Assembly: GCA_964510375.1 (NCBI GenBank)
Contig: CAZEBR010000001.1
Coordinates: 37,207-101,206, forward strand
Source: Candidatus Hadarchaeota archaeon
GTDB lineage: Archaea > Hadarchaeota > Hadarchaeia > Hadarchaeales > JAGGTB01
Reading direction: 5' to 3'
DNA: 64,000 nucleotides
This document shows, one piece after another, positions 4,324 through 20,734 of this stretch (position 1 is its first letter; each line of letters starts with the position of its first letter). A program made the position numbers and the translations under genes. Below the pieces are notes generated by a model. That model was not told the DNA's origin. It was given only the letters and a program-made list of their open reading frames with translations, and ran no database searches.

Positions 4324-5088
4324 ATGTCGGGGGGAGAGCAGAAAAAATTCCGTAATTTGAGGATTTTTAATGGGGCTATGGGTGTTTTGCACCTCTCTCA
4401 ATCCATTTTGATGTTTGTACTGAGTAGTGATTTTTCTTTACCTGTCCTGAATTCCTACCTCACGGGGGCTCCGGGCTCCGAGACCACGACCGAGGTGCTT
4501 TTTAATCTCAGAATTGGCCCGATGGTAGCTCTTTTTTTACTAATATCTGCGGTAGCTCATTTTCTGCTCGCTACCGTTCTGTACGAATGGTACGTGAAGA
4601 ATCTGAAAGATCATATCAATCCCCTGCGATGGGTCGAGTATTCTTTCAGTTCCTCTATAATGATAGTGGTCATCGCGATGTTGACGGGTATCCTGGAGAT
4701 AGCCGCTCTGGTTACAATCTTCATCGTCAATGCTTCGATGATTCTTTTCGGCTGGATGATGGAACTCTACAACCAGGAGACAGAGGAGACGAAGTGGACT
4801 CCGTTTGTGTTCGGGTGCATCGCCGGAATTGCCCCTTGGATAGCAATAGCTATAAGTCTCGTGACGGCACTAACGAGCGCCACGGTCAATGTTCCCACAT
4901 TTGTCATAGGAATTTTTGTCTCGATAGGTGTACTATTCAACGTATTCGCTCTGAATCAGGTCCTGCAGTACAAGAAGGTGGGGCCTTGGAGGGACTATCT
5001 TTTCGGCGAGAAAATGTACGTCGTCTTGAGCTTGGTGGCCAAATCTGCTTTGGCCTGGCAGGTCTTTGCCGGTACGCTGATAGGATAG
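4324..5088 (+). CDS. Heliorhodopsin (inverted-topology microbial rhodopsin)
   Basis: 254 aa, 7 TM. Near-identical blocks to heliorhodopsin 48C12 recalled from memory: FN..GV.HL.Q, RWVEYSxSSSxMIVxIA, NASMILFGW, FGCIAGIxPWI, YxVLSLVAKSALAWQxFxGxLI. Schiff-base Lys (K240, AAA at 5041-5043), counterion Glu in RWVEY, and both conserved His present. Confidence 0.85.
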   Translation: MSGGEQKKFRNLRIFNGAMGVLHLSQSILMFVLSSDFSLPVLNSYLTGAPGSETTTEVLFNLRIGPMVALFLLISAVAHFLLATVLYEWYVKNLKDHINPLRWVEYSFSSSIMIVVIAMLTGILEIAALVTIFIVNASMILFGWMMELYNQETEETKWTPFVFGCIAGIAPWIAIAISLVTALTSATVNVPTFVIGIFVSIGVLFNVFALNQVLQYKKVGPWRDYLFGEKMYVVLSLVAKSALAWQVFAGTLIG

Positions 5089-6057: not shown

Positions 6058-8097
6058 GTGTACCCGATTAATCTGGATCCGCTTTATCTCGATTCTCTAG
6101 AATCCCTCCGCGACATTCCTGGGATAGGCCGGAAAACGGCGGAGAGGCTTAAAGATTCCTTCGGTTCCGAGGAGTCTGCTTTGGAGGAGATTCGGAATGG
6201 CGATGTCGTCTCCCTGTCCAGCGTTTCGGATCTTTCCGAGGGTGATGCCTCGAGGATCATAAAAAATGCGATTGCAGAGGAGTACCGTTCCGAGAACCCT
6301 TTGAAGACCGAATCTCTGTCGGATATTTATGGGGACTTGCTCAACAGAATCAAGGAAAGGGCAAGGACCAAGTACGGCAAAGCGAGGTTGGACATTTACT
6401 TCCCTGTGTCTTCTGAGGAGAGAATAGAGGAGGTCAGGGAGTGGGTTGACATGGCCTTGAGCGTACGGGTCGATGGAAGTATCGAGGAGAGCATGGAGCG
6501 CGTATCCACATTGAAAGTCCCCGATAGAATCCATGTGGACGACAGAATTATACTAACGGACGATCTGGGGGAGCTAGAGAGGATTCAGGAGGAGATTCCG
6601 GGGGCTCAGGTCGATCTCGTCGATGATTACAGGGAGCTGAGGGACTACGTCAGGGAGTACGAGACGATATTTGTTTTGGGTGATGAATTTTCTGGAATTG
6701 ATATCGACTCGGAGTCGATAGAAAGGATACCCGGGGGTCTAGAGGACCCCTTGGAGGTCTTCCCGGAGATAGTCCTAAATTTTTTTACCGAAAACCTGGA
6801 ATCCATCGAGAACGCCATCGAAGTCCGTAAGAGAGTTGAAGCGCCTTTTCTGGATGACATCGACGGGGAGAGAATCGAAAAAGTCGAGAATTTGCTGTCT
6901 AATCTGGCTCCCGACGGGACCGTGAAACGGGAGGAAAATATTCGAAGGCTCGAGAATGCTTTGGAAAGGATGGGTGACGTTATAGAAAGGGCGGAATCTC
7001 GGGCAAACGATAGATTCGAGAAGCTCCTCGACGATAAGGAGATAACGATCCGCGGAAGCGATCTTAGGGGCCTGGTCAAAAACGGCGGCGAGGCGGATGA
7101 CTTGATCCGATCGGAACTGGGTGATGATTTCGATCGAATAGTTGAAGAAGCCGTCGAAGAGATAGTATCAGAGCTTGATTTGGATTACGAGGAGGAGGCC
7201 ATCGCCCAAGATTTGTTTGTCCAGGGCTTGGAGCTACCCTTGGAGGCCGATAAAGAAACGGTTAGCAGGTTGAGGGACGAGCTGAGGAGAAAGCATTCGT
7301 GGAAATCCCTAGAGACGAAGACACAGGTCGCCAGAGAGCTGGAAGATTTGCAGGAGGGTGTCGAGGATTTGGTTGATAAGGTTCTCGAACTAGATGCCGC
7401 CTTGGCGGTGAAGGAGTTTACGGAGGAAAATTCTATGACGATGCCGGAGTTCGACGGTCGAGGGTTTGATTTGAAGAGTGGAAAGAACATCTTTATCGAT
7501 AATCCGGAGTCGATAGATTACAAAGTCGAGGGCGTCAGGCTATTAACGGGCGTAAACAGTGGAGGGAAAACATCGGCCTTGGATTTGGTCGCCCAGTCTT
7601 ACGTACTTGCTCATATGGGATTTCCGGTTCCGGCAGAGGAGGCCAGGATTGAGATGATGGAGGAGTTCTATTACTATAGAAATATCAAGAAGACGATGAG
7701 TAGCGGTGCGCTCGAAAATATACTGAAGAGATTTGAGCGCTTGCTAGATTCTGAAGGCTCGAAGATCGTCCTCGTGGATGAGTTGGAAAACATTACCGAA
7801 CCTGGGGCTAGCGCCAAGATAGTTTCCGGGATCCTGGATATTTTAAAGACAGACGGCAGCGTAGCGGTCTTCGTCTCCCACCTAGCGGACAAGATTATGG
7901 AGAAAGCGAACTTTGAGATTCCCGTGGACGGCATTGAACCTGAGGGTCTCGATGAGGATATGAATCTGGTCGTCGACAGGTCTCCCAAGAGGGACTTGCT
8001 TGCCACTAGCACTCCCGAACTCGTCGTGAAAAAGCTCGGTAGCCGAAGTAACTCGGAGTTTTACGACGAACTCCTAGAGAAGTTTGACGGGTCGTAG
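6058..8097 (+). CDS. MutS-family (MutS2-like) P-loop ATPase with N-terminal helix-hairpin-helix DNA-binding region
   Basis: GTG start; N-terminal IPGIGRKTAERL HhH; MutS domain-V type P-loop LTGVNSGGKTSALDLVAQSYVLAHMGFPVPA and Walker B IVLVDELE; no mismatch-recognition domain; very acidic. Confidence 0.6.
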   Translation: MYPINLDPLYLDSLESLRDIPGIGRKTAERLKDSFGSEESALEEIRNGDVVSLSSVSDLSEGDASRIIKNAIAEEYRSENPLKTESLSDIYGDLLNRIKERARTKYGKARLDIYFPVSSEERIEEVREWVDMALSVRVDGSIEESMERVSTLKVPDRIHVDDRIILTDDLGELERIQEEIPGAQVDLVDDYRELRDYVREYETIFVLGDEFSGIDIDSESIERIPGGLEDPLEVFPEIVLNFFTENLESIENAIEVRKRVEAPFLDDIDGERIEKVENLLSNLAPDGTVKREENIRRLENALERMGDVIERAESRANDRFEKLLDDKEITIRGSDLRGLVKNGGEADDLIRSELGDDFDRIVEEAVEEIVSELDLDYEEEAIAQDLFVQGLELPLEADKETVSRLRDELRRKHSWKSLETKTQVARELEDLQEGVEDLVDKVLELDAALAVKEFTEENSMTMPEFDGRGFDLKSGKNIFIDNPESIDYKVEGVRLLTGVNSGGKTSALDLVAQSYVLAHMGFPVPAEEARIEMMEEFYYYRNIKKTMSSGALENILKRFERLLDSEGSKIVLVDELENITEPGASAKIVSGILDILKTDGSVAVFVSHLADKIMEKANFEIPVDGIEPEGLDEDMNLVVDRSPKRDLLATSTPELVVKKLGSRSNSEFYDELLEKFDGS

Positions 8098-8199: not shown

Positions 8200-8565
8200 A
8201 TGCCAAGAGGAGATGGAACTGGACCGACTGGCTCAGGCCCTATGACAGGTAGATCTTTAGGCTACTGCACGGGTTCCAATACCCCAGGGTTTGCGAGTTC
8301 GGCCCCTAGGATGTCAAATGGTCCTCGTCAGGGAGCTAAAGCATCAGGTCGTGCTGATAATTCCGGTCGTGGAGCAGGTCGAGGAAGGTCGGCTGGAAGA
8401 GGATCCGGTAATTCCGGACGTGGAAGAGGACCTCGAGGACGGTCCCAGTCCCTCGGATCGGCGACCTCTCAAAGACAAGTTAACACTAATTCCAGGCAGA
8501 ATAATCCGGCCAATAATCAGCGTGCCGGGGTCGGTCGTCGTACAGGGTCGGATAACAGGAGGTGA
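8200..8565 (+). CDS. DUF5320-like protein, N-terminal part (MPRGDGTGP...GPMTGR...GYC motif plus Gly/Arg-rich low-complexity); terminated by in-frame TGA
   Basis: Conserved N-terminal motif of a family I recall as DUF5320; TTTAAATA TATA-like box and AAGGTGGTGA RBS upstream; stop TGA at 8563-8565 is immediately followed in the same frame by ATG of next ORF. Confidence 0.5.
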   Translation: MPRGDGTGPTGSGPMTGRSLGYCTGSNTPGFASSAPRMSNGPRQGAKASGRADNSGRGAGRGRSAGRGSGNSGRGRGPRGRSQSLGSATSQRQVNTNSRQNNPANNQRAGVGRRTGSDNRR

Positions 8566-8910
8566 ATGTCAATGGGACAACACGGACATAGAAACATGTT
8601 TTACGCAACCGGTTTACCCGGATGGATGAGGTTCGGATACAGTCCCGGATGGGGTGGAATGCCCCCTTGCGCGCAGTACTTAGAACGGACGGAAAGGTTG
8701 TCCGAGGCCGTAGATTGGTTTAATCAGCAGACGGATGTCCAACCCAATCAGACGATTCAGGCAGATGTTTCCTATTCTCCTGCGTCTCAATCCCGGAGTT
8801 CGGAGCAAACTTCGGCGGATCAAGGGATTCAAGAACTGGAAGGCCGACTGAACGCTCTCAAAGATCGGATCGAACAAATCAGGGAAAAGCTCGAACAGTT
8901 GAAAGAATGA
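8566..8910 (+). CDS. DUF5320-like protein, C-terminal part (Gly/Pro/aromatic-rich region plus C-terminal coiled coil)
   Basis: Same frame as 8200-8565 and contiguous with it; GLPGWMRFGYSPGWGG mid-region and ELEGRLNALKDRIEQIREKLEQLKE coiled coil match the usual C-terminal half of this family. Confidence 0.45.
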   Translation: MSMGQHGHRNMFYATGLPGWMRFGYSPGWGGMPPCAQYLERTERLSEAVDWFNQQTDVQPNQTIQADVSYSPASQSRSSEQTSADQGIQELEGRLNALKDRIEQIREKLEQLKE

Positions 8911-9025
8911 CACTGGGGGATTCGTGAATGATAAGATTAATTGTAGCCGGCCAGAATGGCCGTTTGAAGGAAAGGTCCGTTTGAATAGACATGAAAAATC
9001 GGGGATGGGCTGAAGAATTTGAAAA

Positions 9026-9430
9026 ATGTTCAATCTTGCAAAAGTTGGTGGTGTTGTGAAAGTAGCGAGTAGTGCGGAAGGGCAGAGCTTGGACAGCCAA
9101 GTAAGTCCGGTTTTTGGACGATGTCAATGTTTCGTCATAGTGGGCTTGGAGGACGACAAAATAAAAAATAGCTATTGTCTTGAAAATGCGGCTGCCAGCG
9201 AATATAGCGGAGCGGGGACTGAGGCCGCTCAGATTGTCGGTGATGAGGAAACGGATGTCGTGATTTCAGGCTCCGTGGGGCCCAAGGCCTTTTCTGCCTT
9301 GAAACAGCGAAATATCCGTGTGTATAGGGGCAAGCCGGGCACAGTGAGAGAGAACATCGATAAACTTTCCAGAGGGGAACTGGAGGTAGTGGATTCCCCC
9401 ACCGGGTCCCCCCACATGGGACTCGATTAG
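9026..9430 (+). CDS. Dinitrogenase FeMo-cofactor-binding domain protein (NifX/NafY/NifB-C-terminal-like, PF02579-type)
   Basis: Family pattern VKVASS.G...VSPVFGRC..FVIV...D......GAG...A.IV....DVVISGSVGPKA...L....I.VY; probable alternative GTG start at 9056 with GGTGGTG RBS. Confidence 0.7.
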   Translation: MFNLAKVGGVVKVASSAEGQSLDSQVSPVFGRCQCFVIVGLEDDKIKNSYCLENAAASEYSGAGTEAAQIVGDEETDVVISGSVGPKAFSALKQRNIRVYRGKPGTVRENIDKLSRGELEVVDSPTGSPHMGLD

Positions 9431-9495
9431 TAATAAATCGGAAGAATCTGATTTCAAATTAATTAAGGTGTAAACACCTTATATACTGGAGGTCG

Positions 9496-9792
9496 TTGGA
9501 AGGAATGCCTAGACGTAGGAGAAGGAGAAGAGTCGGTTTTCGACCCAATCGGAAATACTTTGGTCCCGGACGAGGAAGGGCCAGCGACGAGGTGGTGATG
9601 AGGGTGGAGGAGCTAGAAGCTATCAGACTGAAGGACGGAGAGGGGTTTTCCCAGGTCGAGTCCGCGGAAAAGATGGATGTCTCTCAGCCGACTTTTTCTA
9701 GGATACTGGAGTCTGCTAGGCAGAAGGTAGCGGACGCTCTGGTAAACGGCAAGGCCCTTCGGATAGAGGGCGGGGACTATGAGGTTGTTTGA
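9496..9792 (+). CDS. DUF134 (UPF0251) family putative DNA-binding protein
   Basis: N-terminal [24 protein letters not shown] motif and C-terminal sigma-70 region-4-like HTH ([51 protein letters not shown]). Confidence 0.65.
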
Positions 9793-9839
9793 ATCGAAGG
9801 GAAATCCAATTATTTATTAATCTGTATAAATAGTGCGAG

Positions 9840-10685
9840 TTGAATAAAGATATGAACGAAGAAATGATGGAAAAGGCTCAGAAGGAAATGAAGGAAAGAA
9901 ACGAAAAAGTCGCCCAAAACATCGAAAGAGTCGATAATACGATAGCCGTGATGAGCGGCAAGGGAGGCGTCGGTAAGAGTACAGTTGCGGCCAATCTCGC
10001 CACCGAGTTGGCGGTGCAGGGTTACGACGTGGGTCTCATGGACTGCGACATGCACGGGCCGAGCATTCCGAAAATCGTGGGGATCGATTACGATCAGAGG
10101 CCGGAGGGGACCGATTCAAATATGAATCCCGTATCCACGGACGTGGGGCTGAAAGTAATTTCTATGGGGTCCTTATTGCCAGAGAGCGACTCCCCGGTCG
10201 TCTGGAGGGGCCCACTGAAGATGAGGGCTATACAGCAGTTTTTAGGCGATGTTAAGTGGGGTGATCTGGATTACTTGATCTTTGACCTGCCTCCAGGAAC
10301 GGGCGACGAACCCCTGAGCATAGCACAGCTTTTGCCTGATCCGGATGGCGCTGTCATAGTCACGACACCTCAGGAGGTGGCTCTTCAGACGATAAGAAGG
10401 GCGGTAAACTTTGCCAAAAAGGTCGATTTGCCGGTTTTGGGGATAATAGAGAATATGAGCGGTTTTGTTTGTCCCCATTGTGGTGAAAAATCCGATATAT
10501 TTAGCTCGGGTGGTGGCAAGGATCTCTCAGAAGAATTGAACATCCCGTTCCTTGGTAGCATTCCCCTTGATCAGGAAATAGTCGAAAGTGGAGAAGAGGG
10601 AAGACCAATAGTTCTGAAGGAAGGGTCCGATGCTGCGAAGGCCTTCAAGGATATTGTTTCCGACATAAAGAAGGCGTTGAGCTGA
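9840..10685 (+). CDS. Mrp/NBP35/ApbC family Fe-S cluster carrier ATPase
   Basis: Deviant Walker A VMSGKGGVGKST; conserved CPHCG cluster-binding motif; 281 aa. Confidence 0.85.
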   Translation: MNKDMNEEMMEKAQKEMKERNEKVAQNIERVDNTIAVMSGKGGVGKSTVAANLATELAVQGYDVGLMDCDMHGPSIPKIVGIDYDQRPEGTDSNMNPVSTDVGLKVISMGSLLPESDSPVVWRGPLKMRAIQQFLGDVKWGDLDYLIFDLPPGTGDEPLSIAQLLPDPDGAVIVTTPQEVALQTIRRAVNFAKKVDLPVLGIIENMSGFVCPHCGEKSDIFSSGGGKDLSEELNIPFLGSIPLDQEIVESGEEGRPIVLKEGSDAAKAFKDIVSDIKKALS

Positions 10686-10810
10686 GATTATTAATCCCTC
10701 GTCCAGCAGCATGCCGGTTGATTCGGTCTCAGAATTTTGACACTATTTACTCAGGGGGACATGAGGAAATTTTGAAATAGTTAGCCGGTAGAAAATTGAT
10801 TGCGACTGGT

Positions 10811-11653
10811 CTAAATTGAGTCCGTCCGCTTTATGATTGCGCTACCTTCTTTCGCCCCGACTCGTCGGCTTACGTGGGGACATTTGACCATGAAAAGGAA
10901 AAAGATGTTCGCTTCGACTTCACTGAAAGCTTCGTAGTTTGCCTGCCCCTTGCTGACGACCACATCGGCGTTACTCAGCCTCGATTTGAACTCTTCCGAG
11001 ATTTTATTGAGCCCGATGTTCTCCTCCATCTCTTCGATTTCGGCTACCTTATCTATTCCCGCGAATTCGGCTTCAGGCCTCATGGCATCGTTCAGCATCG
11101 GAAAACCACGAACAAAGCACCTAACATTTTTTTCTGGCAGTTCTTCCAATAGGAGCCGGTCGAATACTATCTCTCCAGCGTTATCCAAAAGGTATACTAT
11201 ATTATCGGCTTCGCCTATTTCTTTCTTGAACTCTTTAAAATGGTCTATTTCGAAATTCCCGTTCAGATTATTTTCGATAGTTTTCTCTATGTCGAAGTCT
11301 CTGTCGGGGCCGAAATCTATGATGTTTCCGGCAATTGCTATTTTGGTGGCGGTAAGCATCCTATCTTCGGACTCTTCGATTTTTTCTTTCATGCTCGGAT
11401 ACAGGTTCATGGCTTTCTCGTTTGACTCCCTTTTCAGCTTGCGGTAGGGGTCCTGGGTGCTTGTTACCTCCCTTACGATTTTCAGTACCCTGTAAGAAAT
11501 CGAGAGGGGGATTCCATCCAAGCTGATTCTTCCGAGTTCTTTTGCTACTTCTTTTATGGCCTTTCTCTGCAGGGTTTCATCGTCCGTGGCCAGTTTGCTG
11601 GCCTCCAATGCACTTTTCATTATGCACGGTATACAGTCTGGACAAGCTTTCAA
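10811..11653 (-). CDS. DUF89 (ARMT1-like damage-control phosphatase) family protein
   Basis: 280 aa; N-terminal C-x-D-C-x-x-C, DNAGE and KGQANYE motifs typical of archaeal DUF89 proteins. Confidence 0.55.
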   Translation of the reverse strand: MKACPDCIPCIMKSALEASKLATDDETLQRKAIKEVAKELGRISLDGIPLSISYRVLKIVREVTSTQDPYRKLKRESNEKAMNLYPSMKEKIEESEDRMLTATKIAIAGNIIDFGPDRDFDIEKTIENNLNGNFEIDHFKEFKKEIGEADNIVYLLDNAGEIVFDRLLLEELPEKNVRCFVRGFPMLNDAMRPEAEFAGIDKVAEIEEMEENIGLNKISEEFKSRLSNADVVVSKGQANYEAFSEVEANIFFLFMVKCPHVSRRVGAKEGSAIIKRTDSI

Positions 11654-11822
11654 TTATTTCACCTACGAATGTGATGATTGAGGTTGTCTCGGTCTCGAGA
11701 TAAATCTTACCCTCGTTTCAGACTTGAATGACTTGACGGGACCTAATGGCTCCCTTCGGTTCCTTTCGCTCGGATTCGTTCCACTGTCTCGGCTATAAAG
11801 TTTTTCAGGATTTAAGGATCGT

Positions 11823-12167
11823 TCAATGTTTTCCATTCCCGGGTTCGCAAAGGTTTTCACCTGAGTCTATATCCCCTTCCAGGAACTGTTCGATCACATT
11901 TTCGACCTCACCGTTCACTCCGCTGATTACTTTTATGCCCAAATCGTCGAATATGTTAATGGCTTTTCTCCCGATACCGCCGGTGATTATACAGTCCACG
12001 TTATTCTCGCTCATGAATTGGGGGATGTATCCCGGTTTGTGTCCGGGATTTTCGACTACATCCTTACTTTTCACCTTATTTCCCTCGATTTCTACGAAGG
12101 TGAATTCGGGACATCTACCGAAATGAGTTGCTACCATTCCAGAGTCTGTCGGTATGCCAACTTTCAT
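11823..12167 (-). CDS. Dinitrogenase FeMo-cofactor-binding domain protein (NifX-like, second paralogue)
   Basis: MKVGIPTDSGMVATHFGRCPEFTFVEI...NPGHKPG...NVDCIITGGIGRKA...GIKVI family pattern. Confidence 0.7.
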   Translation of the reverse strand: MKVGIPTDSGMVATHFGRCPEFTFVEIEGNKVKSKDVVENPGHKPGYIPQFMSENNVDCIITGGIGRKAINIFDDLGIKVISGVNGEVENVIEQFLEGDIDSGENLCEPGNGKH

Positions 12168-12315: not shown

Positions 12316-13161
12316 CTATACCAACGAGCCTATAAGAAAGGCGATAAGGCCCGATCCCATCCCTATCTTGTAAACGAGCGAGGCTCTTTTTGCAGCCAGT
12401 TTTTCCTGACTTTTTGCAATGATTGCTATTCCTGTGAGGAAGGATAAAATCGGGACCGTTACGACGTAGAGGTACAGTCTTCCAAATATGTTCCACAGGT
12501 AAGGTAGTGGGGTCAGAATAATCGCTATAACGGTGAACGTGATAGCCAGCCCTGCTGCTTTTTTTCTGCCGTGTTCAAGAGGGAAGGACTTTGATCCGGA
12601 TTTTTTGTCCCCCTCGATGTCCTCGATATCCTTTATCAGTTCTCTACCTGCGGTCGAGAATGCGGCCATGGCGGCCATGATGCCGGCTGTTTGGAATCTA
12701 CCCACCGCAAGGCTTCCGAACAAGAAAGTAGATCCCACCAGGAAACTTATTGCAACATTTCCGACCAATCCCCTCTTCTTCAAGCTCCGAGCGTAATAAT
12801 AAAGCAAAATCGAGTTGGCGGAGGCGAGTATCAGACATGATAATCTCCACGTGAGAGCGGAGTAGACGATTCCGACCGCGAAGAGTATCCTGCTTATCGT
12901 GAGGGCGTCCGATGGACTAATTCTTCCTGATGGTATGGGCCTATCCGGATTGTTCACGGAGTCGAGTTCCCTGTCTGCGTAATCATTTACCGAGTTCCCA
13001 GCCCCTGCGATAAAGGCCGCGGCCACGAAGGCGAAGATGATTTCGAATGAGGGTATTCCTCCGGCCCCGATAATTCCGCCTATGAGAACCCCTATTCCCG
13101 CCAGAACGCAGTTATGCGGCCTTATTAGTTCCAGTGCTGCCTTTCCATTCATGTTGATCAC
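12316..13161 (-). CDS. UbiA-family prenyltransferase, likely digeranylgeranylglyceryl phosphate (DGGGP) synthase
   Basis: 281 aa, ~8 TM; Asp-rich motif GNSVNDYADRELDSVNNPDRPIP; size and pattern fit archaeal DGGGP synthase. Confidence 0.6.
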   Translation of the reverse strand: MINMNGKAALELIRPHNCVLAGIGVLIGGIIGAGGIPSFEIIFAFVAAAFIAGAGNSVNDYADRELDSVNNPDRPIPSGRISPSDALTISRILFAVGIVYSALTWRLSCLILASANSILLYYYARSLKKRGLVGNVAISFLVGSTFLFGSLAVGRFQTAGIMAAMAAFSTAGRELIKDIEDIEGDKKSGSKSFPLEHGRKKAAGLAITFTVIAIILTPLPYLWNIFGRLYLYVVTVPILSFLTGIAIIAKSQEKLAAKRASLVYKIGMGSGLIAFLIGSLV

Positions 13162-14283: not shown

Positions 14284-14532
14284 TTGATGCTGTCTTTGAC
14301 GTCCGAAACTGTCTCCTTGAACGACCGAAAGGACTTGGAATACAAGCTCGGCGAAATAGCGGAAAAGATCGAGGATCAAGGGAGAAAAAGACGCGTTCTG
14401 GCCGATATATTGAGAAAGGCCAAGGAAGATTTTAGGCTCCCAATGGACGATGAAGAGAAAAGCATAGTCGAGTCCGACTTGGTTTATAACGTCGAGAACT
14501 TACGGTCGCCGGCGTGGATGGCGGAGTCCTGA
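14284..14532 (+). CDS. Small hypothetical ORF overlapping start of NurA-like gene (possibly its frameshifted N-terminal segment)
   Basis: 82 aa helical ORF ending 19 nt inside the next gene in a different frame. Confidence 0.25.
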   Translation: MMLSLTSETVSLNDRKDLEYKLGEIAEKIEDQGRKRRVLADILRKAKEDFRLPMDDEEKSIVESDLVYNVENLRSPAWMAES

Positions 14533-15446
14533 GCAAACCTCTCCACGGGTTGGACCTGATTTTGGTCAGGGCCGTGGTCGCAATTTTTGATTATCGAGAC
14601 GGTCGCTTGGAAAACACCCATTACCACCCAAACGAAATGCCCGTCCCCGAACTCATCAACATACACGAACCCCTCGACACTAGGGAGTTGGAGGTACTGG
14701 TGGGAATGAAGAGACAACTCACGGAACTCGAGAGGGCTAAGGAGGTGGCGGCGGATGGAGGGATAGACGCCCTGATGTTGGACGGGTCAGTCGTACCGCA
14801 GTACTCCAGCCACGTTTCCGATGAGAGGACCCGCGAGCTCTACCGAAAGCTAATCGATTCTTTTACCGAGGTTTACCGTACCTGTGAAGAAAGGGACGTT
14901 CTGCTGATGGGTGCGATTAAGGATTCTAGGAGCACGCGGTTGGTGAACGTGTTCCGAAACAAGGTTCTTCCCGAATTTATGGAAGGAACGGACCTGCCTT
15001 ACCCCGATGTTTCCTCGGTGGATGAGACAAGAAACGTTCTTCAAAGCTCCCGTGACACCGCCTTTCTGGATTACCTGCTGGAAGCCGGCGAGAGGACGTT
15101 TACCTTCAAGTACGCGCAGGCTCCGGCGAACCTCTTGGAGGACCTCGGCGACTGGAGAAAGAGTATACACGCTTTTTACGTCAAGCCCGCACCCTACGAC
15201 AGGCCGGTCAGGGTCGAATTCGTGAGTGGTCTGGATGAGGTGGTCGAAAGGGTCGATAAGATCGCATCGCTAGTAAATACCCTCTCCTCCGGCCACGAAG
15301 CATGTGCCTTGCCTTCCGTACTAATCGAGGCCGATGCGAGGGCCCGGCTGGCCGAAGAGGAGATCGGCATGCTTCGGGATAACATAGCGGATAGACTTGA
15401 GCCTTCCACTATGATGGATTTGAGAAGGGAAAGGAGGCCTTTTTAA
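14514..15446 (+). CDS. nurA: NurA-like 5'-3' nuclease
   Basis: LMLDGSVVP Asp motif, AIKDSRSTRL (GxxKxS-like) motif, FYVKPA block; immediately upstream of and translationally coupled to HerA (stop TAA overlaps ATG at 15447). Confidence 0.5.
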   Translation: MDGGVLSKPLHGLDLILVRAVVAIFDYRDGRLENTHYHPNEMPVPELINIHEPLDTRELEVLVGMKRQLTELERAKEVAADGGIDALMLDGSVVPQYSSHVSDERTRELYRKLIDSFTEVYRTCEERDVLLMGAIKDSRSTRLVNVFRNKVLPEFMEGTDLPYPDVSSVDETRNVLQSSRDTAFLDYLLEAGERTFTFKYAQAPANLLEDLGDWRKSIHAFYVKPAPYDRPVRVEFVSGLDEVVERVDKIASLVNTLSSGHEACALPSVLIEADARARLAEEEIGMLRDNIADRLEPSTMMDLRRERRPF

Positions 15447-16991
15447 ATGGGACCCGAAGTCGGAACCGTGATATGCACCTCGGACGGTCCGTCCGCGGGC
15501 GATTTTTCCTTCGTCGTGACGGACAGCGGCGGCGAAGCCCCCATCCGGAGGGGTCAGTTCGTCGAACTCAGGGGATCCGAGGGAAAAGTCGTAGCACAGG
15601 TTCAGAATATACGTAAGACAAACCGTTACTTCATGCGTCCCGAGTCTGTCAAGGAGTACGAGACCGGAAAAGAATCCGTAAGCACGATTTTTCCGGCAGA
15701 TCGTTGGGAGTACGTCGTCGCGGAGGCCAAGAACTCGGGGGTACAGACCGATGAGGGACTCGAACAGGTCACATATCCCGTCTCACCGGGGGACAAGGTG
15801 TATGAAGCCGGACCCGACACGCTTTCCGGATTTCTAGGGATAGATGAGACCGGAGGCGTGAAGCTCGGACACGTCAAGCATCACGATTTACCCGCCCAAC
15901 TCAACCTCACGAAGCTATTGAGAAAGCATGTTGCCATCCTTGCGATGAGCGGCGCCGGAAAAAGCTACACCGCGACGGTTCTCTTGGAGGAACTCATGGA
16001 TCGTGATCCTGACGAGGGGCGAGTTGCGTCAGTCGTCGTAGACGTTCATGGAGAGTACACCTCTCTGGCGAAGTCGAACGGCGGTGGCGCGGATTACTCG
16101 GATAGGGCTTACATAGTCAGGGGGGAGAACGTCGAGATTGGCGTTCCAAACATGCACGCCTACAGGTTCAGGGAGTTTGTTCCTGACATGTCCGGTAGCC
16201 AAGTCAGGGAACTGGACAGGGTCCTGAAGGAACTGAGATCGGAGATGAGGTCAGGCCGGGGCGAGTATGATCTGGACGACGTGATCGCCAAGGTGGAGGA
16301 GAACGGAAAGTCCCACAAGCAGCTCAAGAGGGCTCTCCTCGATAGGCTCTACGATCTCAGATCATTGGACGTGTTCGGCAAGAGCGACTATCCCGACTGG
16401 AGGGCGCTGGTGGAGCCGGGAAAGACCGCAATTCTCGATCTCAGCAGGGTCTTCGATCAACGGAAAAAGAGGGTCATCTTTACCTACTTCGCTAGGAGAC
16501 TATTCAACAAGAGGAAGTCGGGCCAGGCTCCCCCCTTCGCTCTACTCTTGGAGGAGGCACACCAGTTCGCTCCATCCCAGATCTCTGCGATCTCCAGCTC
16601 CGTTCTGAAGAAGATAGCGAGGGAGGGACGGAAGTTCTATGCTTCACTCATCCTGGTAAGCCAGAGGCCCGTCAGGCTTTCCACGACGGTTCTCTCTCAG
16701 GCGAACACGAACATCCTACTCAGGGTCACGAACCCTCACGATCTGGACCATATCAAAAAGTCATCCGAGCGCATCACCAAGGACACGGCTAGCATGATAT
16801 CCTCGCTTCCGGTCGGACAGGCGCTAGTCGTTGGAGAGGCGGTAAACCATCCAATATTCGTGGACGTCAGGGAGAGGAGGTCGAAGGAACCGGATCACGG
16901 TACGAGCTTGGAGGAGGTGGCCCAGAAATATGAAGAAGAGCATGAAAAGAGCCCTGATCAGGGCCAGGAAGGAATTAAGGCCTTCGTTTAA
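15447..16991 (+). CDS. herA: HerA-family (DUF87) hexameric ATPase/helicase
   Basis: 514 aa; N-terminal HAS-barrel-like region; Walker A AILAMSGAGKSYTA; Walker B ALLLEEAHQFAP; typical HerA size. Confidence 0.75.
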   Translation: MGPEVGTVICTSDGPSAGDFSFVVTDSGGEAPIRRGQFVELRGSEGKVVAQVQNIRKTNRYFMRPESVKEYETGKESVSTIFPADRWEYVVAEAKNSGVQTDEGLEQVTYPVSPGDKVYEAGPDTLSGFLGIDETGGVKLGHVKHHDLPAQLNLTKLLRKHVAILAMSGAGKSYTATVLLEELMDRDPDEGRVASVVVDVHGEYTSLAKSNGGGADYSDRAYIVRGENVEIGVPNMHAYRFREFVPDMSGSQVRELDRVLKELRSEMRSGRGEYDLDDVIAKVEENGKSHKQLKRALLDRLYDLRSLDVFGKSDYPDWRALVEPGKTAILDLSRVFDQRKKRVIFTYFARRLFNKRKSGQAPPFALLLEEAHQFAPSQISAISSSVLKKIAREGRKFYASLILVSQRPVRLSTTVLSQANTNILLRVTNPHDLDHIKKSSERITKDTASMISSLPVGQALVVGEAVNHPIFVDVRERRSKEPDHGTSLEEVAQKYEEEHEKSPDQGQEGIKAFV

Positions 16992-17203: not shown

Positions 17204-18475
17204 CTAATCAGTCCTTTCAAGTTTGAGAAGACAGGAGAGAGCTTCTTCCATGTCTTTGACTATGATGGCTTCTTTTTCCAGAGAAGAAAAGATTTCTTTT
17301 GCCTCACCGTCTGTGAAATCCTTTTCGTCTATGGGAGTGTTTTTGATAACTAAGGTGGGTTTGTGTTTTGCTATCTCCTCTGCCAGCTTCAGATTTTTTA
17401 AATTTCCTCTGCCGAAGGGCATCTCCGTGAGTACTACCGCATCCGACTTTTCGGCAAGTTCTCTGTTTTTTCGATTTTTGTTTTCCGGTATCGCCGCGAA
17501 CGGGGAACATTCAACCGTCTCGATTCCTAGTCGACGGGCTTCCGTGTAGTCGTCGTCCATGGGGGAGAGTACTCCAGCTGAAACTGTGAAACCCTTTCTC
17601 TTAAGAGAGTGCATCAATGAACTTCCGGTGCCGCCCCCGCATATAAAATGTACTCTGAAATCCTTTTTCGCTCCGGTTTTCGTGTCCGTCGCCCTAGAAA
17701 CCGGAGTTACGTAAAGGGAATTTGTTTCTGGGACCCTTCTTATTGATACTTCAGCTCCATAGACTTCTTTGATGTTCTCTTCGGTCAGGACTTCTGGGGG
17801 GTCGCCCTTGGCATATATTTTCCCGTCTTTGAGCAGAATTAGAAAATCACAGTATCTTCCTGCCGTGTTCAGGTCATGGAAGGTAGTTATGGTGCATTTA
17901 TCCTGTTCCTTTGTCAGATTTTTCAATAGGTCCAGGATCACCATTTGATTGCTGACGTCGAGGTGGTTCGTGGGTTCGTCAAGAAGGATTACCGACGGCT
18001 CCTGAGCAAGTGCCTTGGCGATTATGACCCTCTGCTTTTCCCCGCCCGATAGTTCGTTGAAGTCGCGCGAATGGAGCCGCCAGGTGTCGGTTATTTCCAT
18101 GGCCCTCTTTACTACGGACATGTCTTCCTCCCCTTCGTCTTCCAACGGACCGAGATGAGGCGTTCGACCTAAAGTAACCATTTCGAGTGCGGTAAAAGAG
18201 TAGTTGGAGTCGAATTCCTGAGGTACTGTGGCCATGTCCCGGGCGATTTCCTTCTGTTTTGCCCTGCCGATATCTTTTCCGTTTAAGTAGACGGCTCCTT
18301 TCATCGGATTTAGGATTTGGTTTATCGTTTTTAGAAGGGTAGTTTTTCCGGAGGCATTTGGACCTATTATACCGACAAAATCTCCCTTCTCGACGGAAAA
18401 ATCCGCTCCGCGGAGCACTTCGGTGTCCCCGTATCCAGAGGTCAGATTTTCGACTGACAGTCTATCTTCGGACAC
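17204..18475 (-). CDS. ABC transporter ATP-binding protein (FepC/BtuD-like) fused to ~170-aa C-terminal domain of unknown function
   Basis: Walker A GPNASGKTT, signature LSGGEKQR, Walker B ILLDEPTNHLD; C-terminal extension with Gly-rich loop VHFICGGGTGSS not found in canonical FepC/BtuD. Confidence 0.75.
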   Translation of the reverse strand: MSEDRLSVENLTSGYGDTEVLRGADFSVEKGDFVGIIGPNASGKTTLLKTINQILNPMKGAVYLNGKDIGRAKQKEIARDMATVPQEFDSNYSFTALEMVTLGRTPHLGPLEDEGEEDMSVVKRAMEITDTWRLHSRDFNELSGGEKQRVIIAKALAQEPSVILLDEPTNHLDVSNQMVILDLLKNLTKEQDKCTITTFHDLNTAGRYCDFLILLKDGKIYAKGDPPEVLTEENIKEVYGAEVSIRRVPETNSLYVTPVSRATDTKTGAKKDFRVHFICGGGTGSSLMHSLKRKGFTVSAGVLSPMDDDYTEARRLGIETVECSPFAAIPENKNRKNRELAEKSDAVVLTEMPFGRGNLKNLKLAEEIAKHKPTLVIKNTPIDEKDFTDGEAKEIFSSLEKEAIIVKDMEEALSCLLKLERTD

Positions 18476-18486
18476 TCATATCACCG

Positions 18487-19554
18487 TTAGAAAGAATATT
18501 TTTTCCTCCTCAAAAGGTAAATGAAGAAGGGAACTCCCGCCATCGCCGTTATTATCCCCACGGGCAGATCCTCGGGTTGTAGCGCGACGCGCGCGACCGC
18601 ATCAGCCCAGACCAGAAATATCCCGCCACCGAGTGCGGAAGCGGGTATCAGAATACGGTGATCCGAACCGATCAAAATCCTCATCATATGTGGTACGATA
18701 AGCCCCACGAATCCGATTATTCCGCTGACTGAAACCGCTGCCGATGTTATCAATGTTGAGAATATCAGTAAGGTCTTTTTCGTCCTTTCGACGTCGATAC
18801 CGAGTTGGTGGGCCTGTTCTTCGCCGAGCAACATGACGTTCAGTCCTCGGCTGAAGTAGTAGATTACTCCCGATCCCACGACGGTAAAGGGCGCGATTAT
18901 GAGGACGTGGGTCCAGTTTTTTGCCCACAGGCCCCCCATCGTCCAATAAACCATTCCGTGGAGGTCTTCTGCGCCCGTGTACATGATCAGACGCACGGTG
19001 GCGTTGAGGAAGAAGCTGACCGCTATTCCAGTTAGCAGGAGGACGCCTATCGGGAGTCTCCCTTTGATTTTGGCCACATTGTACACTAATAAAATGGCTC
19101 CCAGACCGAATAAGAAGCTCATAAATGGTTTGGTGTAAAAGCCGAAAAAGTTCAAATTAAAAGCAATCGATGATACCGCTCCGAGCGCGGCTCCCGATGA
19201 AACTCCGACCGTGTAGGGCTCCGCCATTGGATTTCTGAAAATTCCCTGAATCGTCGTTCCGGCAACTCCTAACGATGCTCCGACGAAGACACCGACGATT
19301 ACTCTAGGTAGTCTGACCTGTAGGACAATCGATTTAGCGCCCGCCGAAGAGGTTTCGGAAAAAAGGAGGTCCACGAGGGGGATCCGATTCAGTATAATTT
19401 TGGCTGAAAGAATCGGGGAGATTTCGTAAGGACCTATTGTAGTCGAGATCACTACAGTTAAGCAAAGAACTATAATTAGGGTTATGATTATCCAGCGCCA
19501 GTGGACCAGCCTTTGCCGCCAAATCTCCAGCGCGCTTTCCTTTTTTTGAGACAT
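18487..19554 (-). CDS. FecCD-family ABC permease (BtuC/FepD-like)
   Basis: 355 aa, ~9-10 TM, typical FecCD organisation; 11-nt gap to the downstream ATPase gene, same strand. Confidence 0.8.
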   Translation of the reverse strand: MSQKKESALEIWRQRLVHWRWIIITLIIVLCLTVVISTTIGPYEISPILSAKIILNRIPLVDLLFSETSSAGAKSIVLQVRLPRVIVGVFVGASLGVAGTTIQGIFRNPMAEPYTVGVSSGAALGAVSSIAFNLNFFGFYTKPFMSFLFGLGAILLVYNVAKIKGRLPIGVLLLTGIAVSFFLNATVRLIMYTGAEDLHGMVYWTMGGLWAKNWTHVLIIAPFTVVGSGVIYYFSRGLNVMLLGEEQAHQLGIDVERTKKTLLIFSTLITSAAVSVSGIIGFVGLIVPHMMRILIGSDHRILIPASALGGGIFLVWADAVARVALQPEDLPVGIITAMAGVPFFIYLLRRKKYSF

Positions 19555-19689
19555 TACAGTTCTTCCCTCTATTTTGATAATTTTCTGCTTCCCGAGCTTC
19601 GATCTGAATAAGAAGAGAGGAAAAGGGATACATTCTCATTGGCACCCCTTTCCGTCTCAATATGGAAGTAGTTGTTAGCAGTCATATGC

Positions 19690-20691
19690 CTACTCGCTCA
19701 CTTCTGGAATTTCTGTGTAGGAGAGAGAGGGTTTTTCGAACATGTCCGGGTGTAAGATATAACTCAGGACTTTAACCGCGTCTGCAAGCCTCGGTCCGGG
19801 CCGGCTGAAGATATTTTTTGGAACACTGTAGACTTGATTATCTTTAATTGCTTCGACCTCGCTGAAGCCGGGTGTATTTTTGACTTCTTCTACGGTCTTT
19901 CCGGAATGGGGAGGGACCATATAGAATTCTGGGTCCCGGCCGATCACTGTTTCCTTACTGACTGAAATATACCCTTTTTTGTCATCAAAGATGTTTTGGC
20001 CTCCACATATTTCGACTATACTGTCGATGAAGGTGTCGGAACCCATGGTGTAGATTGGGTCCCACCAGACTTGCCAGAATACTCCGGGTCTTTCGCTCGC
20101 GTCTAGATTCTCCGTTCTTTCTTCAACCTCTTGAATTTCCTCTCTCATGTTTTCAGCAATCTCTTTGGCGGTTTTCGAGGCCCCGATGGACTTTCCAATC
20201 GTTTCTATGTCGCTAATTGCATCGGGGATGTTTTCACCTTTGAAGCACAGGACCGGTATTCCGACCTGCTCGAGCTTCTGCACCCGAGATTTCGTGACCG
20301 ACTGGTATCCTCCTACGATGATCAGGTCCGGATTTGTACCGATGACCTTTTCGACGCTGGGCTTGGAATATTCCCCGATTATTTCCAAGCTGCCGTTTTC
20401 CTTTCCTTCTTCCACTTCCGGGGGATAGTCGGCGTAGCTATCCACTCCGACAACTCGGTCACCGGCTCCCAAAGCGAAGACTATCTCCGTGGTGACTGGA
20501 GTTATACAAACGATGTTTTCCGGCCTCCGAGTAATTTCGACGTTCTCTCCCCTGTCGTCCGTCACTGTTATCGGGAATTCAACACTCTTTTCCTCTTCAT
20601 TCTGCCCGCCGATAAGATTGTAAGCACCGACAGCTGAAACCACTAAAACGAGTACTATGGCGAGGTAGGCCGCTTTCTTTTTTCCGTCCAT
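19690..20691 (-). CDS. Periplasmic/extracytoplasmic substrate-binding protein (class III, BtuF/FepB-like) for iron-chelate or corrinoid ABC uptake
   Basis: N-terminal signal anchor AAYLAIVLVLVVSAVGA; binding-protein fold pattern; probable true start ATG at 20691 (ORF track extends to a TTG at 20724). Confidence 0.7.
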   Translation of the reverse strand: MDGKKKAAYLAIVLVLVVSAVGAYNLIGGQNEEEKSVEFPITVTDDRGENVEITRRPENIVCITPVTTEIVFALGAGDRVVGVDSYADYPPEVEEGKENGSLEIIGEYSKPSVEKVIGTNPDLIIVGGYQSVTKSRVQKLEQVGIPVLCFKGENIPDAISDIETIGKSIGASKTAKEIAENMREEIQEVEERTENLDASERPGVFWQVWWDPIYTMGSDTFIDSIVEICGGQNIFDDKKGYISVSKETVIGRDPEFYMVPPHSGKTVEEVKNTPGFSEVEAIKDNQVYSVPKNIFSRPGPRLADAVKVLSYILHPDMFEKPSLSYTEIPEVSE

Positions 20692-20718
20692 GCTGTTTGC
20701 CCTTTTGTTGGATTTTTT

Positions 20719-20734
20719 ATCCAACTAGTTGGAT
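20719..20734. promoter_or_regulatory. Perfect 16-bp palindrome ATCCAACTAGTTGGAT, candidate operator upstream of the ABC uptake operon
   Basis: Read directly; centred ~35 bp upstream of the ATG at 20691, in the only intergenic gap preceding the binding-protein/permease/ATPase operon. Confidence 0.35.

Follow-up and report, generated by a model that had tools for sequence, protein, structure and literature searches.

The closest described system to the locus analysed here is the orange protein (ORP) locus of Desulfovibrio vulgaris Hildenborough, which comprises orp3-4-5 and orp7-8-9. It encodes an ORP-type PF02579 protein (Orp8), a second PF02579 protein, a protein combining an Mrp/NBP35 P-loop with a NifX-type domain (MrpORP, which is Orp9), and two MinD-like ATPases with two [4Fe-4S] motifs (Orp3 and Orp4). 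Orp7 (DVU2107) is probably a DUF134 protein. MrpORP binds Fe-S on both its Mrp and NifX domains and transfers it in vitro to Orp3/Orp4 and to aconitase, and Orp8 carries a non-covalent [S2MoS2CuS2MoS2] cluster (PMC6345978). Another relevant protein is IssA of Pyrococcus furiosus, a thioferrate store that forms nanoparticles, in which a NifX domain is followed by a cationic tail rich in Gly and aromatic residues, and which rebuilds [4Fe-4S] ferredoxin (PMC5524996). The protein MTH1175 was assigned to the IssA clade by Vaccaro et al. (PMC5524996). PF02579, the NifX-fold family (IPR003731), is found in 65% of anaerobes versus 7.6% of aerobes (PMC13386939).

We analysed a 64 kb stretch of archaeal DNA (hereafter the window) that carries genes of the DUF5320, PF02579 (two genes), DUF134, Mrp/NBP35 and DUF89 families, all as assigned by the first-pass annotation and all borne out by Pfam matches. 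The gene cluster is real and conserved in anaerobes and is a trimmed archaeal counterpart of the bacterial ORP locus, and is therefore already partly known. Like the ORP locus, it combines an ORP-type PF02579 protein, a second PF02579 protein, an Mrp/NBP35 P-loop and a NifX-type domain, and both the ORP locus and this type of cluster are restricted to anaerobes. Operons with an Mrp+NifX gene of the MrpORP kind open with a DUF134-containing gene in loci L064 and L084, and close homologues of the Mrp+NifX fusion of these loci bear NCBI's MrpORP name. Unlike the ORP locus, the window lacks Orp3 and Orp4, the only demonstrated MrpORP clients, has MrpORP split between two genes, and contains a pair of DUF5320 genes, of which we found no mention in the available ORP literature. 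It also lacks sigma-54/OrpR control, because the host is an archaeon. The first-pass annotation had proposed an uncharacterised neighbourhood of co-localised metal-cluster-handling genes unrelated to nitrogenase. The co-localisation, the part in metal-cluster handling and the independence from nitrogenase are borne out, and the neighbourhood is statistically conserved in anaerobic archaea and bacteria. It is not uncharacterised, since its genes correspond to those of the Desulfovibrio orp locus and the NifX-fold clade of NifX-fold protein 1 includes IssA. To call its cargo and target unknown is still fair for this archaeon, as the in vitro targets Orp3 and Orp4 are missing from the window. We give a probability of about 50% to the reading that this is a pared-down archaeal version of an ORP/IssA-type system, in which anaerobes would use small NifX-fold carriers to handle Fe-S or related metal-sulfide species.

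Both small PF02579 proteins have the NifX fold by sequence, matching the solved structures of MTH1175, D. gigas ORP, TM1816 and PH0822 with E-values of 1e-13 to 1e-21. NifX-fold protein 1 (9026-9430, forward strand; PF02579 71.5 bits, E = 7e-20) is of the ORP/MTH1175 (IssA-clade) type, acidic (pI 5.0) and tail-less, with an FGRCQC motif. Its true start is probably the GTG at 9056; it is 63% identical to the 129-residue NifX protein of locus L082 in an alignment that begins at residue 11. Its PDB matches place it closest to MTH1175 (1EO1, 75 bits), followed by D. gigas ORP (2WFB, 54 bits, E = 2e-13) and TM1290 (52 bits). NifX-fold protein 2 (11823-12167, reverse strand; PF02579 80.7 bits, E = 1e-22) is of the TM1816/PH0822 type (PDB matches of 76 and 78 bits, respectively), is also acidic (pI 4.7) and has an HFGRC motif. 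It shares 68% identity with a reverse-strand NifX protein at the equivalent relative position in L082. Because it lies on the opposite strand and has its own promoter-like region, it may not be co-regulated with the cluster. Both proteins fall outside the published definition of IssA (pI of at least 9; a Gly content of 20% or more over the final 40 residues). They share PF02579 and the fold with the nitrogenase cofactor carriers NifX, NafY and NifB-C. Unlike those carriers, they have no nif genes nearby, and the solved structures closest to them belong to stand-alone COG1433 proteins (MTH1175, TM1290, TM1816, PH0822 and MJ0327); no NifX or NafY structure was among the PDB matches at E < 0.01 for either protein. 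The two genes had been described as far from any nifHDK, and no nitrogenase-like genes were found anywhere in the 64 kb.

The Mrp/NBP35 Fe-S carrier ATPase (9852-10685, forward strand; PF10609 333 bits, E = 1e-99) resembles Mrp/NBP35/ApbC carriers in its full-length PF10609 domain, deviant Walker A motif (SGKGGVGKST) and CxxC motif (CPHC). An alignment of orthologues favours the ATG at 9852 over the start at 9840 chosen earlier. The protein is 76-78% identical to Mrp of L082 and L087, and its PDB matches are the solved archaeal Mrp (2PH1/3KB1) and CFD1 (217-234 bits). Unlike Mrp/NBP35/ApbC carriers, it forms part of an ORP-type cluster, and it scores 361 bits as a MrpORP P-loop versus 241 bits as ApbC. 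Against the NCBIfam MrpORP model (NF041136, cut-off 450 bits), Mrp scores 361.5 bits over model positions 2-250 and NifX-fold protein 2 scores 98 bits over positions 265-364, so that the two jointly span the model while each stays below its cut-off. The window Mrp corresponds to the P-loop domain of MrpORP, and NifX-fold protein 2 to its C-terminal 'Di-Nase' domain, which here has a gene of its own on the other strand. The Mrp gene could also be a general-purpose Mrp.

In place of the single DUF5320-like gene annotated previously, we found a split pair (8200-8565 and 8572-8910), the second member of which had been missed. The N-half (8200-8565, forward strand) matches PF17253 with 43.6 bits (E = 7e-11) over profile positions 1-63 of 99 and is collinear with residues 1-71 of the intact 183-residue L082 protein. 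It is Gly/Arg-rich and cationic (pI 12.0, 22% Gly, 17% Arg, one Cys, which is conserved) and contains a conserved MPxxDGTGPxGxGPMTGRGxGxC motif (consensus from 48 homologues). The seventh gene (8572-8910, forward strand) is in the same frame, separated by a single TGA (8563-8565); GGAGGTGA lies just upstream of this TGA, and the ATG of the second gene is at 8572. In this arrangement the two halves are translationally coupled. By sequence, the second gene is the C-terminal half of a full-length DUF5320 protein: it shares 53-54% identity with the C-half that stands alone in L087 and with residues 68-180 of the DUF5320 protein of L082. Alone it has no Pfam match. Its features are an almost invariant HRNMFYATGLPGWMRFGYSPGWGG motif, a linker rich in Q and P, and a coiled-coil helix at the C-terminus, and its AF2 model is confident for the helix only (residues 81-111). 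Only 81 representative relatives were found among 1.84 billion proteins. The two-gene split recurs in L086-L088, which are independent assemblies of relatives. As described, the IssA tail resembles the N-half in being cationic, Gly-rich and probably unstructured. Aromatic residues are scarce in the N-half (2%), the aromatic motif being located in the C-half. Unlike IssA, the window NifX proteins are acidic and tail-less and the cationic segment is a separate polypeptide. In sister lineages the NifX domain continues into a fused tail rich in Gly, Arg and Met, which in the relatives ends in a coiled coil, whereas the IssA tail ends Gly-rich.

The DUF134 (UPF0251) protein (9505-9792, alternative start 9496, forward strand; PF02001 83 bits, E = 2e-23) is of a small HTH DNA-binding type with an Arg-rich N-terminus, and a 95-residue product starting at the ATG at 9505 is already on record as an exact match. 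Besides PF02001 it has weak matches to sigma-70 region 4 and HTH profiles, and the family profile matches the DeoR DNA-binding domain (7BHY, E = 7e-6). In the AF2 model (pLDDT 84), the HTH core superposes on a DeoR-operator complex (0.8 A over 40 residues) and also on ECF sigma region 4. DUF134 is the presumed regulator of the locus. No biochemistry is known for DUF5320 or DUF134; a full-text literature search gave only two incidental mentions of DUF5320.

Conservation of the neighbourhood was assessed in 80 DUF134-anchored loci from other species. As these are the top tblastn matches out of at least 579 candidates, the rates apply to the DUF134 subfamily nearest to the query. In these best 80 of at least 579 loci, a partner lies within 3 kb of DUF134 in 39 (DUF5320) and 38 (PF02579), partner density is about 15-30 times lower at 7.5-10 kb than at 0-1.5 kb, and of the partners located within 5 kb more than 90% are on the same strand. 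DUF5320 (42 within 3 kb versus 3 at 5-10 kb, p = 3e-11), NifX (48 versus 10, p = 2e-8) and MinD+Fer4 proteins (26 versus 3, p = 2e-6) are all concentrated near DUF134 in the same sample. True Mrp shows no enrichment within 3 kb there (12 near versus 11 far), and those copies within 5 kb are all on the same strand (19/19), where they usually close the cluster at its distal end. The first-pass proposal that these families recur together is thus upheld for DUF134, DUF5320, PF02579 and P-loop ATPases, but not for DUF89. The complete cluster of L082 has the order DUF5320, tailed NifX, NifX, DUF134, Mrp, two CbiA+Fer4 genes and a reverse-strand NifX; L086-L088 have the same cluster with DUF5320 as two genes. 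The window proteins share 53-78% identity with orthologues in the complete clusters of these closest relatives. Compared with this full set, the window lacks both Orp3/4-like MinD-ferredoxin ATPases and the tailed NifX. Domain fusions join DUF134 to NifX (L062, L064 and L084), DUF134 to the DUF5320 N-motif (L031 and L050), NifX to DUF5320 (L009 and L072; tails scoring 35 and 42 bits against Pfam DUF5320, cut-off 27 bits), and Mrp to NifX (L064, a MrpORP).

From these comparisons we infer the cargo and physiological role of the window locus, together with a mechanism that involves loading by Mrp, a DUF5320 tail acting in trans and regulation by DUF134. Mrp would load Fe-S or metal-sulfide species onto both acidic NifX-fold proteins: an Mrp/NBP35 dimer would use its CxxC motif to build a bridging [4Fe-4S] cluster and hand this on in an ATP-dependent manner. 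The DUF5320 pair may serve in trans as the tail that is fused to the NifX domain in sister lineages and present in cis in IssA; its two halves together would neutralise or stabilise an anionic metal-sulfide cargo and oligomerise the carriers. The N-half (pI 12.0) and the NifX proteins (pI 4.7-5.0) are complementary in charge. DUF134 would bind DNA through its DeoR/sigma-region-4-like HTH and regulate the locus, coupling transcription to the loading state of a NifX or DUF5320 partner. Because the Orp3/Orp4-like MinD-ferredoxin ATPases have been lost from the window locus, the cargo would have to reach other clients.

It is possible, if doubtful, that the core is instead a regulatory switch, with DUF134 and DUF5320 forming a metal- or sulfide-responsive transcription factor pair rather than serving storage or transfer. 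DUF5320 would then resemble an anti-sigma-type partner or co-sensor, and the NifX-fold, Mrp and MinD-ferredoxin proteins would either provide input to the sensor or be targets of the regulation. In the best 80 of at least 579 loci, no link is tighter than that between DUF5320 and DUF134, and 27 of the 38 archaeal loci among them have the pair. In at least 13 loci of archaea, mostly DPANN, the pair occurs with neither NifX nor Mrp in the available flanks, so its core function may not need these carriers. The several fusions of DUF134 to NifX or the DUF5320 N-motif are consistent with a switch, as is the superposition of its HTH on ECF sigma region 4, to which anti-sigma partners typically bind. 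Genes related to metals are frequent neighbours of the pair, namely those for ZIP transporters (6 loci), DsbD_2-like membrane proteins (13 loci) and single VIT1-like and ArsP_1 permeases, and the L089 cluster has FUR and CsoR-like regulators nearby. However, the transporter associations concern a minority of loci and are raw counts without a background comparison. No DNA target of DUF134 is known, and the sole palindrome near its promoter in the window is unique, unconserved and within chance expectation. A switch also leaves the NifX fusions to DUF5320-like tails unexplained, and it overlaps the ORP/IssA-type reading instead of excluding it.

The homology of NifX-fold protein 1 to D. gigas ORP and Orp8 raises the question of whether the cargo is a Mo/W(-Cu) thiometallate cluster, the locus buffering or trafficking Mo or W sulfide for Mo/W enzymes. 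XdhC and DUF364 genes follow the L084 MrpORP operon, DUF364 follows the L086 cluster, and the A. fulgidus homologues AF2378-AF2380 were proposed to serve molybdopterin enzymes (PMC3949148). We nevertheless regard this cargo as unlikely: the protein is nearer to MTH1175 than to ORP (75 versus 54 bits), the MrpORP domains bind Fe-S and not Mo-Cu (PMC6345978), and near the window's cluster we found no genes for Mo/W transport or cofactors. Somewhat less likely still is a role in cell division or positioning, as proposed for the Desulfovibrio ORP complex, in which ParA/MinD-like ATPases and small partners would influence division-site placement. Desulfovibrio without the activator OrpR is defective in morphology, MrpORP has a polar localisation, and Orp3/4 contain amphipathic helices like those of MinD (PMC6345978, PMC8359166, PMC4672049); DUF134 also adjoins FtsZ in the MSBL1 locus L083. 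That single adjacency is anecdotal, however, the role is a hypothesis even for Desulfovibrio (PMC8359166), and the window has no MinD-like Orp3/4 genes, its ATPase being a canonical CxxC Mrp/NBP35. Chance adjacency of unrelated small genes, or a remnant of nitrogenase cofactor maturation, is highly improbable: NifX-fold protein 2 is on the other strand and some neighbours are truly unrelated, but this reading is already contradicted by the gene order kept in L082 and L086-L088, the distance-dependent clustering in the best 80 of at least 579 loci and several independent domain fusions, and the exclusively stand-alone COG1433-type PDB matches (E < 0.01), the 64 kb free of nif genes and the bias of PF02579 towards anaerobes (PMC13386939) also stand against it.

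One such neighbour is the DUF89/ARMT1-type metal-dependent phosphatase (10811-11653, reverse strand; PF01937 215 bits, E = 2e-63; PDB matches AF1104, 2FFJ, and PH1575, 2G8L), an unrelated bystander outside the conserved cluster. In the best 80 of at least 579 loci, DUF89 lies within 10 kb of DUF134 in three and within 5 kb in one, and it is missing from the L082 and L086-L088 clusters. It sits where the relatives have the two MinD-ferredoxin (Orp3/4-like) genes. The cluster is flanked in the window by DGGGP synthase and MutS-like genes, which are likewise unrelated neighbours.

ORF listing and profile searches recovered every gene family that the first-pass annotation had named in this neighbourhood. 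The forward strand carries a DUF5320 gene at 8200–8565 (PF17253, E 7e-11, matching profile positions 1–63 of 99 only), a NifX-fold gene at 9026–9430 (NifX protein 1; PF02579, E 7e-20), a DUF134 gene at 9505–9792 (PF02001, E 2e-23) and an Mrp/NBP35 gene at 9852–10685 (PF10609, E 1e-99). A DUF89/ARMT1 gene at 10811–11653 (PF01937, E 2e-63) and a second NifX-fold gene at 11823–12167 (NifX protein 2; PF02579, E 1e-22, 80.7 bits) lie on the reverse strand. The earlier description of the locus was largely right and required correction on three points: DUF5320 is split, DUF89 is a bystander, and start codons needed revision. No further copies of any cluster family were detected in the 64-kb window, and no nif-like ORF was found anywhere in the 64 kb, in agreement with the reported remoteness from nitrogenase. 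The flanking genes are unrelated to the cluster and encode an HhH/MutS-like ATPase (6058–8097, +), a DGGGP synthase (12316–13161) and NurA/HerA (14514–16991). The first of these, directly upstream of the cluster, encodes a 679-aa protein with helix-hairpin-helix motifs at its N-terminus and an ATPase of the MutS domain V type; among NCBIfam models it is best matched by the KamC reactivase ATPase, with a score (82 bits) far under the cut-off. A heliorhodopsin gene (4324–5088, +; PF18761, E 2e-102) is located 3 kb upstream of the cluster; the host is an uncultured archaeon, seemingly anaerobic and MSBL1/Hadarchaeia-like. Further away, a 1328-aa ORF with a signal-peptide-like N-terminus (24350–28336, −) and two nearby ORFs (28419–29162, − and 29532–30236, −) match no Pfam family at a threshold of E 1e-5.

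A single DUF5320-like gene had been described, but there are two, the second being a seventh ORF that was overlooked (8566/8572–8910, +). It encodes the remainder of DUF5320 and by itself has no Pfam match. The features of PF17253 (the MPxxDGTGP...C motif at the N-terminus, an RG-rich stretch and a coiled coil at the C-terminus) are hence divided between two polypeptides. Both ORFs share one frame and are separated by a single TGA (junction at 8563–8572); a Shine-Dalgarno sequence, GGAGGTGA, lies at this junction, with an ATG at 8572 6 nt after it. The two halves are in-frame, translationally coupled genes. The intact 183-aa DUF5320 of L082, a DUF134-anchored locus from the closest relative with genomic context, is collinear with both ORFs. 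Two loci from independent assemblies of related organisms (L087 and L088) likewise encode DUF5320 in two genes: the N-half (129 aa) ends in TAA, and a spacer of 16 nt lies before the C-half (117 aa; L087:1290–1345). Because L087 and L088 show the same two-gene layout, we interpret the split as a conserved gene fission, neither an error nor a case of recoding. Selenocysteine insertion or readthrough at the TGA is unlikely, given the Shine-Dalgarno sequence and ATG directly at the stop and the TAA and spacer of the L087 orthologue. Exact-sequence look-ups of the two halves returned no match on record. The N-half bears the family motif MPxxDGTGPxGxGPMTGRGxGxC and is extremely basic (pI 12.0, 22% Gly, 17% Arg). 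The family of the C-half is small, with 81 representative clusters in a set of 1.84 billion proteins, and its alignment reveals HRNMYYATGLPGWMRFGYSPGWGG as a nearly invariant motif, together with a coiled coil at the C-terminus; the AF2 model of the C-half is poor (pLDDT 58.5) and confident for helix 81–111 only.

The Mrp/NBP35 protein matches PF10609 over profile positions 2–245 of 246 (333 bits) and retains the deviant Walker A motif SGKGGVGKST and the conserved CxxC (CPHC). The fused MrpORP (an Mrp/NBP35 P-loop domain with a NifX-type Di-Nase domain at its C-terminus) is not encoded here, as the corresponding genes are separate and on opposite strands. When compared with the MrpORP model NF041136, the window Mrp covers positions 2–250 (361.5 bits; cut-off 450) and NifX protein 2 covers positions 265–364 (98 bits). 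Together the two proteins span the model, and MrpORP is therefore present in a split, unfused form.

NifX protein 1 is homologous to the orange protein (ORP) of D. gigas (2WFB; 54 bits, E 2e-13, 114 residues aligned) but is outscored there by MTH1175 (75 bits), its best solved relative among the PDB matches. MTH1175 was assigned to the IssA clade by Vaccaro et al. (PMC5524996). IssA is a thioferrate store whose cationic Gly/aromatic tail was proposed to bind the anionic polymer (PMC5524996). Published criteria for IssA describe a cationic tail in cis (pI >=9, <5 Cys and >=20% Gly in the last 40 residues). Both window NifX proteins fall outside this definition, being acidic and untailed. NifX protein 1 has a pI of 5.0 and 3 Cys, and Gly makes up 12% of its last 40 residues; for NifX protein 2 the values are pI 4.7, 3 Cys and 18% Gly. 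Whereas IssA carries its cationic tail in cis, the window has a cationic Gly-rich polypeptide in trans only, the DUF5320 N-half. All PDB matches of the NifX-fold proteins at E <0.01 are stand-alone COG1433-type proteins, with no NifX/NafY structure among them, which places them outside the nitrogenase NifX/NafY group. The alignment of NifX protein 1 to the 129-aa NifX of L082 begins at residue 11, and GTG 9056 is therefore favoured as its start.

The neighbourhood had been considered uncharacterised. Its reading as a system for metal-cluster handling holds, but the gene set is that of the Desulfovibrio orp locus, where Orp3/4 are MinD-like with two [4Fe-4S] motifs, Orp5/8 have the NifX fold and Orp9 is MrpORP (PMC6345978, PMC8359166, PMC4672049). 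MrpORP binds Fe-S on both domains and passes it to Orp3/4 in vitro (PMC6345978, PMC8359166, PMC4672049). The ORP locus includes Orp5 as a second small PF02579 protein; NifX protein 2 also belongs to this family but best matches the MrpORP C-terminus and the PDB entries TM1816 and PH0822. The Orp3/Orp4 MinD-like ATPases, with two [4Fe-4S] ferredoxin motifs each, are absent from the window, where a P-loop HMM gives only one match in 64 kb; they may be encoded elsewhere in the genome. Archaea are not known to have sigma-54 or enhancer-binding proteins of the bacterial kind, so ORP-type sigma-54 promoters and the activator OrpR are not expected in the window. The A. fulgidus homologues AF2378–AF2380 show constitutive high expression (PMC3949148).

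Clusters of the closest relatives clarify what the window has kept. L082, whose DUF134 is 78% identical to that of the window, encodes DUF5320, a tailed NifX (202 aa), a NifX (129 aa), DUF134, Mrp, two CbiA+Fer4 proteins and a reverse-strand NifX. The related loci L086–L088 have the same order with a split DUF5320, followed by DUF364, metallo-beta-lactamase and radical SAM genes. Orp3/4-like MinD ATPases are present in L082 and L086/L087. Window proteins are 53–78% identical to their orthologues in these loci; the 129-aa NifX is the counterpart of NifX protein 1, and the reverse-strand NifX that of NifX protein 2. As the orthologues occur in matching order, the framework of the cluster is preserved in the window. 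The tailed NifX gene has been lost, as have the two MinD-ferredoxin genes, and DUF89 occupies the place of the lost genes. The locus is thus a pared-down version of a system that is already known, though not functionally solved, and is not exceptional in itself.

We examined conservation of the neighbourhood in 80 loci from distinct species, retrieved with a DUF134 alignment; their ORFs were annotated with iterative HMMs that started from the window proteins. Among the taxa represented are DPANN archaea, Hadarchaeia, Methanosarcinales, Methanoregula, Bathyarchaeia, Dehalococcoidia and Clostridia. At least one partner gene lies within 5 kb of DUF134 in 63 of the 80 loci, and within 3 kb DUF5320 is found in 39/80 and PF02579 in 38/80; being the best 80 of at least 579 matches, these rates describe the DUF134 subfamily nearest the window. 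Partner genes are concentrated around DUF134: DUF5320 (42 within 3 kb versus 3 at 5–10 kb, p 3e-11), PF02579 (48 versus 10, p 2e-8) and MinD-like ATPases with two [4Fe-4S] motifs (26 versus 3, p 2e-6; 50 Orp3/4-like ORFs among the 80 loci). Within 5 kb these are mostly on the same strand as DUF134 (42/44, 53/58 and 43/47, respectively). True Mrp is further away, usually at the cluster's distal end, with no significant enrichment (12 versus 11) and 19/19 on the same strand. The proposed co-occurrence of the core families is therefore borne out as a distance-dependent association. DUF89 does not share this pattern and is a bystander: it lies within 10 kb of DUF134 in three loci and within 5 kb in one, shows no distance dependence (1 within 3 kb versus 2 at 5–10 kb, not significant; 1/1 on the same strand), and is absent from the clusters of L082 and L086–L088. 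DUF89 adjoins cluster genes in L039 and L052, a weak hint of membership.

Gene fusions connect the same families. DUF134 is fused to NifX in three loci (L062, L064 and L084), in the last as the 253-aa first gene of an MrpORP operon, and to the DUF5320 N-terminal motif and a zinc ribbon in two (L031 and L050). Two Hadarchaeia proteins (L009 and L072) are NifX+DUF5320 fusions whose tails match Pfam DUF5320 with 35 and 42 bits (cut-off 27 bits), and the Mrp+NifX fusion in L064 is MrpORP. In L084 (2935–15416), from a 5.5-Mb bacterial genome, the MrpORP operon that opens with the DUF134+NifX fusion is followed by two DUF364 genes, XdhC, NifU_N and rhodanese, and is preceded by a gene of PF27306 (AF_2379 family).

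The closest named relatives of the window DUF134 are from an MSBL1 archaeon (66% identity) and Hadarchaeia (65%). In its AF2 model (pLDDT 84) the HTH core fits the operator-bound DeoR DNA-binding domain (0.8 A over 40 residues) and also superposes on ECF sigma region 4, and RG-rich C-terminal extensions occur in 31 of 84 DUF134 proteins. A search for a DUF134 operator identified one palindrome, the perfect AAGGTGTAAACACCTT at 9465–9480 (+), which is unique in the window and directly precedes a TATA-like TTATATAC, ~25 nt ahead of the start of DUF134. It is at chance level, with at least one match in 71 of 100 shuffles, was not found upstream of DUF134 in L082, L009, L072 or L021, and was rejected as an operator. 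In L083 (8643–10245), from MSBL1 archaeon SCGC-AAA382N08, a lone DUF134 is directly upstream of FtsZ without DUF5320, NifX or Mrp, and SufBD/SufC genes are 3 kb away.

The most likely mechanism, to which we assign a probability of about 0.5, is that Mrp would assemble Fe-S clusters and hand them over to the acidic NifX-fold carriers, with the DUF5320 pair serving in trans as tail and coiled-coil oligomeriser for an anionic metal-sulfide cargo. DUF134 would then regulate the locus according to the loading state of its partners. Within this model the gene identities, orthology, clustering and fusions have been demonstrated; the cargo, its transfer, DNA binding and regulation are inferences. The main rival is that DUF134 and DUF5320 are primarily a metal- or sulfide-responsive regulatory pair. 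The pair occurs alone in at least 13 archaeal loci, mostly DPANN, and several pair-only loci adjoin genes for ZIP transporters (six loci) or for membrane proteins of DsbD_2-like type (13 loci); these raw counts hint at a possible link to metal homeostasis. Handling of Mo/W-Cu thiometallates by the locus is less likely, as is a role in cell division, one suggested physiological role for the Desulfovibrio ORP system (PMC6345978, PMC8359166, PMC4672049). Chance adjacency and a nitrogenase remnant are both contradicted by the clustering, orthology and fusions and by the lack of nif genes in the 64 kb.

PF02579 is carried by 65% of anaerobes and 7.6% of aerobes (PMC13386939) and, outside nitrogenase, ranks with the strongest genetic markers for an anaerobic lifestyle (PMC13386939). 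ORP-type clusters holding PF02579 proteins were described over a decade ago. The tightest-linked members of the neighbourhood are DUF134, an HTH protein, and the unstudied DUF5320, both tied to the NifX fold by fusions, and the cationic tail known from IssA can come as a separate, even split, polypeptide. This wider pattern, a DUF134–DUF5320 core with tails in trans, is a more interesting lead than the window locus, and with its relatives the locus yields concrete hypotheses on the storage, trafficking and sensing of Fe-S or metal-sulfide species in anaerobic archaea. A more tentative proposal is that DUF5320 might be a free-standing IssA-type cationic tail or coiled-coil adaptor, and that DUF134–DUF5320 might form the ancestral core of a widespread, anaerobe-specific module for metal-sulfide sensing and regulation, and hence a new metalloregulator family. 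This core would have been retained in tiny DPANN genomes beside ZIP-type transporters, and ORP/IssA-type carriers would have repeatedly joined or fused to it.

ZIP-family genes are beside or between DUF5320 and DUF134 in L037, L010, L004, L038, L002 and L061, ~0.5–2.7 kb from DUF134, in DPANN and other archaea; single VIT1-like (L055) and ArsP_1 permease (L067) neighbours also occur. In the window, a probable operon at 17204–22809 (−) encodes a FecCD-type ABC transporter (ATPase, permease and Peripla_BP_2 binding protein) together with a protein resembling thioredoxin/AhpC and a membrane protein of 421 aa that is DsbD_2/CcdA-like but has no direct Pfam match; homologues of this membrane protein adjoin DUF5320–DUF134 in 13 archaeal loci. 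A ParE-family toxin gene (22834–23181, −; PF05016, E 3e-10) adjoins the DsbD_2-like gene.
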